Shown: positions 52,475 through 60,864, numbered from the stretch's first letter. The stretch is DNA of 64,000 bases from Bacteroidaceae bacterium (GCA_963621575.1 CAVFEH010000009.1:1307-65306), one strand, 5' to 3'. The notes: generated from the letters alone by a model not told the origin. Numbers and translations: made by a program.

Positions 52475-55400
52475 CTAGTGGCGGAAGTCAGGCAGACCGC
52501 GGACCTCGTTGGCACGCAGGGGCTGGCCATCGGGCTTGACCAGCCGGACGGTGACAAACATGAGGAGGTTGGTCTTCACAGACTGTTCGCCGCGGCTGGT
52601 GAACAGGTGCCCGAGGATGGGCAGATGACCCAGGACGGGGATCTTGTCCTCAAAGCGCTGCAACTTCTCCTGGATGAGTCCGCCCATGACAACGGTCTCG
52701 TTGTCGTAGACCACCACCGCGGTCTTGATCTCGCGGCGGGTGAAGATGGGCATGGTCATGACCAGGGGGACCTCGGTGTTGTTAATGATCTGCGTGGTGT
52801 TGTAGGTGGAGTCGTAGCCAACCAGATCAGTGACGGAGGGCAGCATGTCCAGATAGATGGAATAGCTGTCGGGAGCCACGGTGGGAGTCACATCCAGGAT
52901 CACACCCAGGGAGGTGGCGGTGAATTCGTCGGGGATGGAGGGAACATAACTGCTGACGGTGCCGCCCGTGCTGGTGGAGTTCTCCACCTCGGGCTTGGTC
53001 CAGCTGAAGGCGAAGTAGCGCTGGGTCACGACTTTCAACTGGGCGGTCTGGCCGCTGATGGTGGTCACCTTGGGGGCGGAGAGCACGTCGGAGTTGTTGG
53101 ACTGCTCGATGGCGTGGATGACGGTGTTGAAGGCGTAGTTGCCAAGCACCGTGTAGACGTTGAAGATGGAGTCGTTCAGAGAGGCGGTGTTGAAGACCTC
53201 GCTTGCGAAGCGGACGCCATTGCCCATCTTGACGGTGCCGCCGGCAGTCTGGCTGCCCAGACCCATCATGAAGTCGCCGGTGCGGACGCCGCCGCGGCCA
53301 TTGATGAGGCCGTGGTCCACGCCGTTGGCAGCGGGACGATAGCTGACGCCACCGCCTTCGAAGGACCACTCGAAGCCAAGGGTGTTCAAGTCCGTCTGCT
53401 CGATTTCAACGAACTTGGCCTCGATGGAGACCTGGCGGGGGATCTGGTTGATCTCTTCCAGGATCCGCTTGATCACGCGCTGCTGCTCGATGGTGTGGTG
53501 GACGATCAGACGGCCCGTCTTGGGGTAGTAGCAGATGTTGGCGCCCAGGGGCATGGGGACGCCCATGGCCATGAAGATGTTCTTCGCGGTGTAGAACTTG
53601 CTGCCGCCCTTCTTGGACTTGGAGCCGAACTCCTCGTTTTCGTCGCTGTCACTGTCGTCGTCGTCATCGTCGTCGTCATCGTCGTCGTCATCGTCGTCGT
53701 CATCGTCATCCTCGATGGGGGAGGAAAGGGTGCCCAGCTTCTTGCGGGTTCTGGGCGCGTCGAAGACGCCGGCCTCGATGTTGTAGAAACGGGTCTCCAT
53801 GGGGTCCATCTCGATCATCTTGTGGGCCACGATGACGGAGGACTCGGCGTTGCGGATGCGGAGTCCGAACTGCCAGGAGAGGTAATCCAGGACTTCCCGG
53901 GGAGTGATGTTGGTGAGGTTCAGGTTCACCAGCTTGTCCTCCAGGCTTTCGCCGGTGGCCATGCCGGAATCCTGGACGGGGGTGGCGCCGTAGGCGCCGT
54001 AGTCTCCGCCGTAGGGGTTCAGTCCGGCGTTGGCGCCCATGCCGTATGCGCCGGTGTTCATGCCGTAGGCCCCGGCGCCCATGCCGTATCCGGCGCCCAT
54101 GCCGGCGTTCATGCCATAGCCGGCGTTGCTGTATCCGCTGTTGCCGTATCCGGAGCTCATGCTCATGTCACGGCCGGAGGAACCTCCTCCAACGCCACCC
54201 TCGGAGCTGGTCTGATAGCCGTCGGGAGTGTATCCTGGCATGCCCGCATCAGCCATGGGAACCAGCATGGGGACGATGTTGATGCCGATGCCCTCGGGAT
54301 CCGCCTTCTTGATTTCGCGGGGCAGGATTTCGGTGAGGACGTCTTTCAGGGTTTCGTTGTCGATGACCAGGTTTTGGATCACGATGTCATCGAGGCGCTT
54401 GTTGATGCCCTGGATGTCGTCGTTCTTCCGGATGGTCTGTGTGCTGGAGTAGTCGGCAGCGCCGGCCATCAGCGGGGTGACGGGGTCAGACCACTTCCAG
54501 CGGACTTCCGCCATGCGGTCCTTCAACAGGGTGTCCAGCTTCTCGTTGGCGGCGGCCTCCATGGTCTCGTCAATCTTGGCCAGGGCGCGGATGGCGGCCA
54601 GGTTGAAGGGATCGGCGACCAGTGCCTGCTCAAACTGCTCGCGGGCCTGGGCGTAGCGGCCGTTCTGCAGATAGACCTGTCCGGACTTCAGGGCCACGCG
54701 GACGACCTGGTCATGCTCGGCAAGATCGGGGATCAGCTCGCTGACGGAGGTCTTGGCGCGGACCATGGTCTCCTCCAGGATGCTCTGGAGAGTGTCAATG
54801 CCCTTCTTCAGGCGGTTCTCGTCGGTGGGCTGGATGATGTAGTCGGACTTGCCGCAGTTCTCGGCCAGGCGCTTCTCCACGCTGAAGTGGTCGCCCAGAT
54901 CCAAGGTGGTCACGTAGTCGGACATGGTCTCGATGGCTTCGGCGGCCTCGGCCTCGTTCTTGGTGAGGGCCAGCTTCTGTTCCAGGATGGCGATGCTGAT
55001 GTAATTCTCGCCTTCCTCGGCATTCTTCTGGCCCAACAGGGAGAAGATCTCGGCCAGGCGGGACTGGAGGTGCAGGCGCAGGACGGCGGCCTTGCGCAGG
55101 TTCACCATGACCTCGGAGTCCGCCTGCAGGTTGCCGACGGTGCTCATGGAGACCAGGATGTCGGTGGCCTCCAGCAGGGCGTCCTGGGAGGAGAACGCCA
55201 GCTCTTTGCCGCGCTCCAGATGGCCATCGCTGTAGACGGCCGCCGCTGAGGCGTAGTGCTCGTTGGCGCGGTTCAGGGCGTCCTGGGCGGAATCCAGGCG
55301 GGTCTTGGCGACGGCGCCCTCGGCCTGCCGCTTGGCGATCTGCCGCTGGAGACCCAGTTCGGCGCGGGCCTTGTCCATGTTGGCGCCCAGCTTCTGGATG

Positions 55401-58827: not shown

Positions 58828-60864
58828 CTAGAGGCCCATTCCGCCGCGTCGGCCGGTGCTGCCGCCGCTCTTGGCCTCGCTCCAGGGATACGCCTCGAGT
58901 TGCGCGTTGAACTTCACCTGGATCTGGAAGTCCACGCCATTCTCCAGGATTTCGTTCTTCTGGCGTCCGGTGATGGTGGTGTAGCCTTCCTCATTGCTGA
59001 AGAGCTGGGACTTTTTCAGGTTCCGCAGGAAGAGCAGCTCCCCGGCCTGGTCCAGGTGGCTGTCGTCCTTCTGGCGGACAATCTCGTTGCCCTCCTCGTC
59101 CAGCATGGGCTCTTCGTCCGCCACGTCCTCCTCGGTCTTTTCGGGGATCTCGAAGGGATACTTGGGTTCGGGGGCCAGCTCGGGGTCGCGGCTGAAGACG
59201 GGGTCGCGGGAGGTGATGGTGTGCGCCTCGATTTCCAGTCCGCCGATGGTGGTGAGGGAGGGCAGGTTGGATCCGGAGCCCATGCCCATCATGTCGTCCA
59301 TGCTGCCCAGGCTCATCATGTCGCTGCTGGCGCCCATGCCGCCCAGGTTGAACATGTCGTTCATGCCGCCGCTGCTCCCGGCGCTTTCTTCCTCCACGAT
59401 GCTGGTCTGCTCGACCTGCTTCACGTCGCCGAAGACGGGGCGGATGCTGTCAATCCATACATTGTCGGGGCGCGCGCGGAAGATCTCCTCCAGGACGAGG
59501 GGCCACTGTGTGCGCTGCATAAGGAAGGCGGAGAGTTCGGTGACCTGGGACTGTGCGCTGTCCACGTTTCCGAGGGCGCCTTTCAGGTCATTGTAGGCGG
59601 GTTCGAACTTCCCGCGGGTGGTCTGGTAGGCCCCCAGCTGGGTCTTGGTCTCCTCCACGGCGCGGCGCATGCTGGTGTCGATGAGGAAGAACATGACCAG
59701 CAGGGTGAACATGGAGGCCACGAAATAGGGCTTCTTGTAGAAGAGGGACTGTTGCTGCGCCACGTCGCGGGGCAGGAGGTTGATTTCAACGGGGCAGGTC
59801 TGGGAGTATCGCAGGGCCAGGCCGACCACTTCGCTGAAGGTGTGCGCCACCTCGGAGAGCCGCTGTTTGTCAATGGAGGGATCCAGCTGGATGCAGCCCA
59901 GGGGGTTGAAATATTCCACGGGCAGGCCGAACTTCTCGGCGAAGAACTGGTCGCAATAGCTGAGGATGGTGGTGCCGCCGGTCAGATAGATTTTCACGGG
60001 GTCGCTGCCGTGCTGCTGGCTCTTGTAGATCGCGATGGAGCGGGCGATTTCGCCGTGGATGCGCCGCATGACATTTCGGACGATCTTGGAGACGTCGGAG
60101 CTGGCCTCGGCGCCGTTCTCGTCCCCCTCGTCGGTGCGGGCCACATAGCCGTGCCGGCGCTTGAATTCCTCGGCCTCCGGCTGTCCGATGGAGAACTTCC
60201 GTGCGATCTGCTGGGTGATGGAGTGTCCGGCGATGGGGATTGTGCGCGCGTAGAAGCGGTTGCCCTCCAGGAAGAGGAGGTTGGTGGTGCGTCCGCCGAT
60301 GGAGATCAGCATCACGCAGCCGTCGGCGCCCAGGCCGTTGGCGCGGGCGGCGTTGTAGCAGGCCACCTGGGCCACGTCGACCAGCTGGGGAGCCAGGCCC
60401 ACGCGGCGGACCGCCTGGACGATCTGCTCTACGATGTCCTTCTTGACCACCACGGAGAGCATGTCCACGGTGTCCTGGTTCTCGTCGTCGCCGGCGATGA
60501 GCTGGAAGTCCATGCTGACCTCGTCCTGTGCGAAGGGGAGGTTTCTGGTGGCTTCGAACTGCGCCAGCTGCCGCAGCTGCTTGCGGTCGTTGTTCAGGTT
60601 GTTCAGCTGGCTGAAGCGGATCAGCGCGGTCTGGCCGGATATGGAGAGCATGGTCCGCTGGGTATGGATGTTGGCCTCCAGCAACATCTGGCGGAGCACG
60701 CCCTCGATCACGCGAATGCGGTTTTCCTCAGAGAGCTCTTCCTCATATTCGCGGTGGGCGAAGTTGACCATCCGCATGCCGCCGGTCTGGTCGAACTCGA
60801 ATTCGCTCAGCTTGATGGCGGCCGCGCCGATGTCAACGGTCAGGAATCTTTCGTTTTTTGCCAT
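58828..60864 (-). CDS. PilM-like actin-fold ATPase fused to a TM + PilN/PilO-like region (Amuc_1101-type)
   Basis: The N-terminus FLTVDIGAAAIKLSEFEF...ISGQTALIRF...ISIGGRTTNLLF...IYLTGGTTIL fits the PilM/FtsA-like fold. A TM helix follows (YFVASMFTLLVMFFLI), then a coiled-coil, a Gly/Met/Ser/Asp-rich tract and a C-terminal domain. 678 aa. Confidence 0.8.
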   Translation of the reverse strand: MAKNERFLTVDIGAAAIKLSEFEFDQTGGMRMVNFAHREYEEELSEENRIRVIEGVLRQMLLEANIHTQRTMLSISGQTALIRFSQLNNLNNDRKQLRQLAQFEATRNLPFAQDEVSMDFQLIAGDDENQDTVDMLSVVVKKDIVEQIVQAVRRVGLAPQLVDVAQVACYNAARANGLGADGCVMLISIGGRTTNLLFLEGNRFYARTIPIAGHSITQQIARKFSIGQPEAEEFKRRHGYVARTDEGDENGAEASSDVSKIVRNVMRRIHGEIARSIAIYKSQQHGSDPVKIYLTGGTTILSYCDQFFAEKFGLPVEYFNPLGCIQLDPSIDKQRLSEVAHTFSEVVGLALRYSQTCPVEINLLPRDVAQQQSLFYKKPYFVASMFTLLVMFFLIDTSMRRAVEETKTQLGAYQTTRGKFEPAYNDLKGALGNVDSAQSQVTELSAFLMQRTQWPLVLEEIFRARPDNVWIDSIRPVFGDVKQVEQTSIVEEESAGSSGGMNDMFNLGGMGASSDMMSLGSMDDMMGMGSGSNLPSLTTIGGLEIEAHTITSRDPVFSRDPELAPEPKYPFEIPEKTEEDVADEEPMLDEEGNEIVRQKDDSHLDQAGELLFLRNLKKSQLFSNEEGYTTITGRQKNEILENGVDFQIQVKFNAQLEAYPWSEAKSGGSTGRRGGMGL

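Follow-up and report, generated by a model that had tools for sequence, protein, structure and literature searches.

The question raised by the locus described here is what kind of machine is encoded by four adjacent envelope genes that recall the Amuc_1098-1101 pilus-like locus of Akkermansia muciniphila and lie in GC-rich DNA without linked pilus motor genes. The genes are located in a stretch of 64,000 nt (GCA_963621575.1, CAVFEH010000009.1:1307-65306, deposited as Bacteroidaceae bacterium), referred to below as the window, and are designated A, B, C and D in the order of transcription.

With a probability of about 0.7, the locus represents, in Lentisphaerota, the pilus-like system known from Akkermansia as Amuc_1098-1102 (MUL2), here reduced to four structural envelope genes. 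A first-pass annotation of the DNA had proposed four co-directional genes with short gaps, arranged as in A. muciniphila. Four minus-strand open reading frames (ORFs) were found with exactly the proposed boundaries (Table 1), and the Amuc_1101, Amuc_1099 and Amuc_1098 models were the best families for A, C and D, respectively.

Relatives were sought with a profile of the PilM fusion encoded by gene A across one genome per GTDB species. This search yielded 207 relatives, and the best 80 of them were compared as numbered loci (L numbers below).

Families and predicted structures of the four proteins

A comparison with the NCBIfam models for Amuc_1098 to Amuc_1101 had been proposed as a check on the assignment. 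Matches for A, C and D were significant, all of them under the equivalog cut-offs of 650 bits (Amuc_1101, NF045709), 50 bits (Amuc_1099, NF042425) and 750 bits (Amuc_1098, NF042912), while protein B gave no match to the Amuc_1100 model NF038287.

Protein A reached 371.4 bits with Amuc_1101_fam (E 1e-110), and the match to this model (positions 1-488 of 608) extended beyond the PilM domain. It also passed the generic PilM model TIGR01175 (155.3 bits, cut-off 133) and Pfam PilM_2 (PF11104; 127 bits, cut-off 27, E 9e-37). Its AlphaFold2 (AF2) model had a predicted local distance difference test score (pLDDT) of 78, and the top Foldseek matches were the PilM structures 5eou, 2ych and 3jc8_Ma, with E values of about 1e-23 to 1e-26.

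The PilM domain is followed in A by a transmembrane and periplasmic region, in keeping with the proposed PilM-like protein fused to a PilN/O-like part. The junction carries the motif INLLP, the signature N-terminal peptide by which PilN binds PilM in canonical systems (PilM:PilN structures 2ych and 5eou). In the AF2 model, a helix of about 100 residues (366-464) leads to periplasmic strands at residues 469-479, 538-550, 630-636 and 643-658 and a further helix at 608-618; a disordered Ser/Gly/Met-rich insert (residues 493-538) splits the strand-rich region. A profile of the last 310 residues, built from 25 loci, had M. xanthus PilN as its top PDB match, with a marginal E of 0.055 and an alignment starting at INLLP. 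The match of this part to Pfam PilN (E 0.0086) was below the cut-off, and T2SSM gave one weak match among the 25 sequences. The interpretation of A as a PilM-PilN fusion is thus well supported by its anatomy and marginally by the scores.

Protein B alone gave nothing relevant in searches of NCBIfam, Pfam and PDB sequences. Evidence for its affiliation came from its family. A narrow profile of 14 close homologues, originating from metagenome-assembled genomes (MAGs) of Lentisphaeria and Oligosphaeraceae, placed three Amuc_1100 PDB sequences on top with E of about 0.05 (0.046) in three collinear stretches. A broad alignment of 113 sequences, built from 191 cluster representatives after an exhaustive profile search, matched PDB Amuc_1100 with E 1.5e-10 over profile positions 40-321 of 323. 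Individually, 95 of the 113 family members matched NF038287 (Amuc_1100_fam), and the Pfam family PF28028 (Amuc_1100) was precomputed on homologues of B up to 82% identical (P0002).

The predicted fold of B was compared with the published Amuc_1100 structure, as had been suggested. The first 10 Foldseek matches were without exception chains of Amuc_1100, with E values from 6e-7 to 7e-6, a probability of 1.0 and target TM-scores of 0.54-0.73; the match ranked after them had E 0.5. Identity in these structural alignments was 8-15%. PilO appeared as a weak secondary match (3jc8_Oa; E 0.08 by profile and E 0.8 by Foldseek). The mean pLDDT of the B model was 67, mainly because residues 261-354 are disordered.

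The layout of B comprises an N-terminal transmembrane helix, a helical stalk, a strand-rich core at about residues 178-236 and a C-terminal strand at 358-369; the disordered segment is a Ser/Arg/Gly linker between the core and the terminal strand. The stretch of Amuc_1100 aligned to this linker (chain residues about 213-260) is Ala/Pro-rich. Because the family profile, the model matches of the relatives and the predicted fold agree, B is a distant, longer homologue of Amuc_1100 with a PilO-like layout, and the annotation as an Amuc_1100-like protein was borne out at that distance.

This homology bears on the possibility that B acts primarily as an immunomodulator that is surface-exposed and TLR2-active, as Amuc_1100 is, with the operon mainly a host-signalling device. 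Amuc_1100 activates TLR2 (PMC5332112), the predicted fold of B is the same, and the closest relatives of the locus come from gut, rumen and faecal metagenomes. At 8-15% identity, however, TLR2 activity of B cannot be inferred, and its N-terminal transmembrane helix and PilO-like layout fit an inner-membrane anchor. The operon is also kept in bioreactor and environmental Lentisphaerota, as judged from isolate names, and MUL2 is conserved in aquatic Akkermansiaceae (PMC13174399); conservation outside host-associated settings points to a cell-autonomous role. The immunomodulator explanation was considered very unlikely.

Protein C matched the Amuc_1099 model with 36.4 bits (E 4e-9) and only over residues 162-216. 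Among 30 homologues taken from related loci, 29 matched this model at E<=0.001, with a best E of 2e-23. An N-terminal transmembrane helix and the N-terminus MDF..HYEK were conserved in the alignment of these 30 homologues, and the conserved N-terminus supports the GTG start of gene C.

A zinc-ribbon and calcium-motif protein had been predicted at this position, and both the four cysteines and the two DxDxDG motifs proved to be conserved among the homologues. The Asp, Gly, Asn and Glu columns of the calcium motifs were invariant across the alignment. Nine of the 30 members matched the thrombospondin-3 model NF047639, and a local match of the C profile to the calcium site of C2 toxin was obtained.

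Protein D is a giant secretin, as had been annotated; a PF00263 domain was found in its 1145 residues. Amuc_1098_fam was the best family (268 bits, E 1.5e-79, residues 402-1133), GspD was second-best (154 bits), and MshL and PilQ models were matched as well. Matches to PDB secretins (GspD, PilQ) had E values from 3e-15 to 1e-7. Pfam searches detected a TPR element in the N-terminal half and found no AMIN domain. A Gly-rich low-complexity region and a run of 19 Asp residues are also present.

Low-complexity inserts rich in Gly, Met, Ser, Gln and Arg occur in all four proteins and are predicted to be disordered where modelled. In the window they lie at 59251-59388, 57808-57963, 56465-56614 and 53981-54223, and the poly-Asp run at 53654-53710.

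Conservation in Lentisphaerota and the Amuc_1102-like gene

The labels of the best 80 loci were almost all Lentisphaeria, Oligosphaeraceae, Victivallales or Lentisphaerae, and the cultured Oligosphaera ethanolica DSM 24202 was among them; its locus (L036) is of the five-gene version with a 1102-like gene. In DNA, the loci closest to the window (L002-L004; chicken and other gut metagenomes) were 88-90% identical to it. The host is a Lentisphaerota bacterium and not a Verrucomicrobium; on the basis of this identity and of the labels of the relatives, the source of the window is an as yet undescribed species in an uncultured Lentisphaeria genus of the gut. The assignment to an Akkermansia type of system in GC-rich DNA held as regards the system, while the genome had to be redefined as Lentisphaerota instead of merely a GC-rich relative of Akkermansia. 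Only loci of the Lentisphaerota type were present among the best 80, with no Akkermansia locus for direct side-by-side comparison.

Eight contigs (L004, L058, L026, L027, L037, L061, L072 and L080) titled Anaerovoracaceae, Paceibacterota or Verrucomicrobia carry a Lentisphaerota-type operon at 35-95% identity. They are probably mis-binned or mislabelled MAG contigs.

Gene order was counted from ORFs labelled by hidden Markov models in 78 related loci and judged where the contig permits. The order A-B-C-D was kept in all of them as far as the contigs allow: 41 loci were ABCD, 11 ABCDD and one ABCCD, the last having a split C gene, and the remaining ones were cut by contig ends. Tandem secretin genes (A-B-C-D-D) were seen in Victivallis- and Lentisphaera-type loci (L062, L068, L070, L071, L073-L077, L081), at about 14.1-19.9 kb of each such locus and after the 1099-like gene.

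Recurrent neighbours in the 80 loci were rnpA, yidD, yidC, a KH/R3H gene, guaB, floA and fatty-acid/lipid A genes. Genes for an ATPase, platform protein, prepilin peptidase or pilin were not among them. A recurrent upstream gene of about 600-680 codons, considered as a GspE-/PilB-type ATPase, was rejected as YidC.

When the flanking ORFs were clustered, a protein of about 205-260 aa emerged that is encoded directly upstream of gene A and on the same strand in about 60 loci. Its profile matched the sequence of the Amuc_1102 crystal structure (7dsz) with E 5.5e-22. Of 24 members, 22 matched NF042424 (Amuc_1102 family pilus-like protein), at least one of them, with 76.7 bits, passing the cut-off of 55 bits. 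The N-terminus of these Amuc_1102-like proteins is a usual hydrophobic signal with Ala-x-Ala or Gln at its end, and the prepilin motif G-F-T-L-x-E is absent.

In at least 20 loci, guaB is separated from the 1102-like gene by floA, which encodes a flotillin-like protein (PF12127; for example L082, 8857-9816, and L025, L030, L033 and L036), so that the order is guaB-floA-1102-A-B-C-D; in two loci (L040 and L053) floA is kept and the 1102-like gene is absent. Further upstream in relatives follow rnpA, yidD, yidC and the KH/R3H gene. The ancestral order in the phylum is guaB-floA-1102-pilMN-1100-1099-secretin.

A different arrangement was observed in the window and in L001-L014 (52-95% identity in A), where guaB is followed directly by A with 177-403 bp between them. 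The 1102-like gene is absent from these 14 loci, and neither it (at E<=10) nor floA was found by a six-frame profile search of the whole 64-kb window. In the clade of 14 loci to which the window belongs, floA and the pilin-like 1102 gene have disappeared from the locus. A word-indexed protein search with the Amuc_1102 profile returned 20 proteins, none attributable to this clade, and is too limited to settle copies elsewhere. Either a 1102 subunit is dispensable for the working of the scaffold, or its gene lies at another site in the genome.

The first-pass annotation had emphasized that no pilin, ATPase, platform or peptidase gene lies in or beside the cluster, and Pfam scans of 34 other window ORFs judged coding agreed with it (33817-34605, 25046-25426, 27244-27849 and 8062-10632 were left out of the scan). 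The informative absence, however, is that of the Amuc_1102-like gene, kept upstream of pilM by the sister lineages, and not that of pilA, pilB or pilC; none of the 80 loci has the latter as recurrent neighbours.

These observations also bear on the main alternative, in which the locus is an ordinary alignment-subcomplex operon of the type IVa pilus or type II secretion system (T2SS) kind, equivalent to pilMNOPQ, with the pilins, PilB/PilT, PilC and PilD elsewhere in the genome. The gene order mirrors pilMNOPQ, with PilM-PilN, a PilO-like protein, a bitopic linker and a secretin, and A exceeds the curated cut-off of the generic PilM model. Operons of pilMNOPQ are usually unlinked from pilABCD, as in Pseudomonas, and Lentisphaerota carry many prepilin-type genes; one ORF with a classic prepilin motif was found 7 kb upstream in the Victivallis-type locus L062. 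Against this, the best families of A, C and D are those of the Amuc_ proteins and not PilM, PilP and PilQ, and the match of B to Amuc_1100 is about five orders of magnitude better than that to PilO. Protein C is without PilP similarity, D has TPR in place of an AMIN domain, and the partner conserved in the phylum is the Amuc_1102-like protein with its Sec-type signal and without a prepilin motif. An ordinary pilMNOPQ operon was accordingly rated as unlikely, and the MUL2-like assignment was preferred.

The proteins of the window's clade differ in length from those of most other loci. Protein C has 476-515 aa compared with about 365-460 aa, and protein D 1127-1203 aa compared with about 860-1100 aa.

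Loss of the 1102-like gene could also mean that the four remaining genes are a non-functional remnant heading for loss. At the very position where the sister lineages carry this gene and floA, both are missing, and of the two MUL2 factors that bear names in Akkermansia, one is MUL2A (Amuc_1102) (PMC13174399). Nevertheless, the window and 14 clade members have all four ORFs intact, and the codon usage is that of expressed genes. The ratio of nonsynonymous to synonymous substitution rates (dN/dS), determined for the window against the 88%-identical L003, was 0.10 for A, 0.22 for B, 0.20 for C and 0.17 for D; the pair with L007, which is more distant with compressed or saturated dS, is unreliable. 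With these low ratios, the four genes are under purifying selection and not decaying, and a decaying remnant was regarded as extremely improbable.

Layout and surroundings of the locus

Coordinates of the genes and of their features are summarized in Table 1. Gaps of 63, 56 and 159 nt separate A/B, B/C and C/D, respectively. The window has about 65% GC, and many of its long ORFs are artefacts. Genes A-D, with GC contents of 0.85-0.89 at third (GC3) and 0.38-0.44 at second (GC2) codon positions, show the pattern of real genes. Plus-strand ORFs overlapping A-D were rejected as antisense artefacts.

Table 1. Positions of the four genes, of their domains and motifs, and of the upstream spacer in the window.
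Feature	Position	Strand	Description or evidence
Gene A	58828..60864	-	PilM-PilN fusion, Amuc_1101-like, 678 aa, ATG start
Gene B	57637..58764	-	Amuc_1100-like (PilO-like) bitopic protein, 375 aa, ATG start
Gene C	56072..57580	-	Amuc_1099-like bitopic protein, 502 aa, GTG start
Gene D	52475..55912	-	Giant secretin, Amuc_1098-like, 1145 aa, ATG start
Cytoplasmic actin-like PilM domain of A, aa 1-354	59803..60864	-	Pfam, AF2, Foldseek
INLLP motif of A, aa 361-365, fusion joint	59770..59784	-	Sequence; within the segment that aligns with M. xanthus PilN 3jc8_Na
Single transmembrane helix of A, aa 379-399	59668..59730	-	Hydropathy scan; within modelled helix 366-464
Periplasmic PilN-like part of A, coiled coil then strand-rich alpha/beta region	58831..59667	-	AF2 secondary structure
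Four-cysteine zinc-ribbon-like motif of C (C102, C107, C118, C121)	57218..57277	-	Conserved in 90% or more of the 30 homologues
Two DxDxDG calcium-binding motifs of C, aa 137-148 and 165-176	57053..57172	-	Thrombospondin type 3 kind
Signal peptide of D	aa 1-33	-	
Secretin pore domain of D, aa 934-1126	52535..53113	-	Pfam PF00263, 117.7 bits (cut-off 27.5)
TPR element in the N-terminal half of D, aa ~399-450	54563..54718	-	TPR_14, 24.1 bits (cut-off 23.5), and weaker TPR models
Spacer between guaB and gene A, 386 bp	60865..61250	-	Position occupied by floA and the Amuc_1102-like gene in sister lineages
Hairpin followed by T-run after guaB	~61140-61185		Within the spacer; read by eye
TTGAAT-16-TATGTT promoter-like site, weak	~60965-60996		Within the spacer; read by eye

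In a consensus promoter and terminator scan the counts equalled chance, and the promoter-like site and the hairpin of the spacer were not called.

Upstream, the cluster is flanked by guaB, encoding IMP dehydrogenase (61251-62981, minus strand), which is preceded by a methyltransferase gene. The 576-aa upstream ORF, considered as a PilB ATPase, was rejected because it is this IMP dehydrogenase. Downstream lies a gene for a PfkB-family kinase (51342-52244, plus strand), convergent with the cluster. According to Pfam, the scanned window ORFs are mostly housekeeping genes, including gyrB, gyrA, a RecF/SMC-type ATPase gene, uvrC, RNase E/G, purL and pgi. Searches of the window for tRNA genes and Rfam elements gave no match.

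The RecF/SMC-type ATPase, gyrB and gyrA genes are located at 6144-7253 and 42298-48486. Together with rnpA-yidD-yidC-KH/R3H upstream in relatives, they make up a set typical near a replication origin. Cumulative GC skew climbs over most of the window and has no clear turning point.

The first 2000 nt of the window have 44% GC, as against about 65% elsewhere, and hold two overlapping minus-strand ORFs. One (898-1455, 185 aa) has a HEFAHH metallopeptidase motif and an ImmA/IrrE-like appearance, and the other (1427-1873, 148 aa) resembles an XRE-type helix-turn-helix protein. The two look like a regulatory pair acquired by horizontal transfer. No Pfam match was obtained for four ORFs with good codon statistics: 36263-39367 (plus strand, 1034 aa), 17244-19523 (minus, 759 aa), 16498-17190 (minus, 230 aa) and 21463-21942 (minus, 159 aa).

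Proposed function and relation to known systems

In the proposed assembly, A and B would pair in the inner membrane like PilN and PilO and be tethered to the cytoplasmic PilM domain. Protein C, anchored by its transmembrane helix and putatively calcium-binding, would take the position of PilP or GspC and reach the long N-terminal part of the secretin D. Together, the four proteins would form an envelope-spanning scaffold with a gated outer-membrane channel, and the assembly would not be a canonical retractile type IV pilus.

In the literature, MUL2 is regarded as a type IV-like pilus system with roles in attachment and glycan use (PMC13174399), and the entry of large mucin fragments into the periplasm has been reported (PMC13524802; PMC12418764). 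By analogy with Akkermansia, the channel may serve to attach the cell to large glycans or glycoproteins of host or dietary origin, or to take these up and process them.

Several points weigh against the assignment to MUL2 and against parts of this scheme. All four proteins stay under the NCBIfam equivalog cut-offs, B does not match NF038287 even at E<=10, and the PilN matches of the C-terminal part of A are marginal (E 0.055 and 0.0086). In a search of the PDB, the C-family profile showed no structural relative besides the calcium motif and no PilP similarity, and the PilP-like role of C is pure inference. No energy source was identified for the system. The putative role in glycan use, carried over from a different phylum, is a best guess.

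The kind of system is already known: curated models are named after the Amuc_ proteins, and the Pfam Amuc_1100 family touches Lentisphaerota. No paper discussing the locus outside Verrucomicrobiota was found in the literature collection searched. New are the universality and fixed synteny of the operon in Lentisphaerota, the PilM-PilN/PilO interpretation of the relatives of Amuc_1101 and Amuc_1100, and a gut clade without adjacent 1102-like and floA genes.

A wider suggestion, put forward tentatively, is that the MUL2 machine is of ancient origin and has been passed on vertically as an envelope system in Lentisphaerota and related members of the Planctomycetes-Verrucomicrobia-Chlamydiae (PVC) group, with one gut clade lacking any 1102-type subunit. 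Should this be true, the scaffold and channel, and not a fibre, would be the functional core, for example a gate for polymer import or export. With similarly low confidence, MUL2 might then be no speciality of Akkermansia or Verrucomicrobiales, and its usual site might be beside guaB and floA.

Few effectors of a next-generation probiotic have received as much study as Amuc_1100 and its neighbours, and the working of their machine is unsettled. An operon universal in a second phylum, Amuc_1100-type proteins as PilO-like partners of a PilM-PilN fusion, and a lineage in which the four scaffold genes stay under selection without an adjacent 1102-like gene provide a comparative handle on the essential parts of the machine. 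The same results caution against viewing Amuc_1100 mainly as a host-directed pilus protein.

Of the known systems, the T2SS (GspL, GspM, GspC, GspD) resembles the locus in having a cytoplasmic actin-like domain joined through one transmembrane helix to a periplasmic domain, and GspD is the second-best model for D. In contrast to the T2SS, no GspE, GspF or pseudopilin operon surrounds the locus.

With PilMNOPQ of P. aeruginosa, M. xanthus and T. thermophilus, the locus shares the actin-like PilM domain, the INLLP peptide of PilN, and two bitopic proteins, PilN-like and PilO-like, each with a coiled coil and a periplasmic domain, in addition to the secretin. It differs from PilMNOPQ in the fusion of PilM and PilN, in a third protein that is anchored by a transmembrane helix and carries a zinc ribbon and calcium motifs instead of being a PilP lipoprotein, and in a secretin with TPR and no AMIN domain detected. 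The associated subunit in the relatives of the window has a Sec-type and not a class III prepilin signal.

In comparison with Akkermansia MUL2 (Mul2A, Amuc_1102; Mul2B, Amuc_1101), the window locus belongs to Lentisphaerota, has a GC content of about 65%, is linked to guaB and is without a 1102-like gene in 64 kb. Greater protein length, inserts rich in Gly/Met/Ser/Gln, a poly-Asp run and scores below the equivalog level are further differences. As in MUL2, no ATPase or platform gene is linked, and an Amuc_1102-type gene is located directly upstream in most Lentisphaerota. The window locus and Akkermansia MUL2 contain the same four families in the same order.

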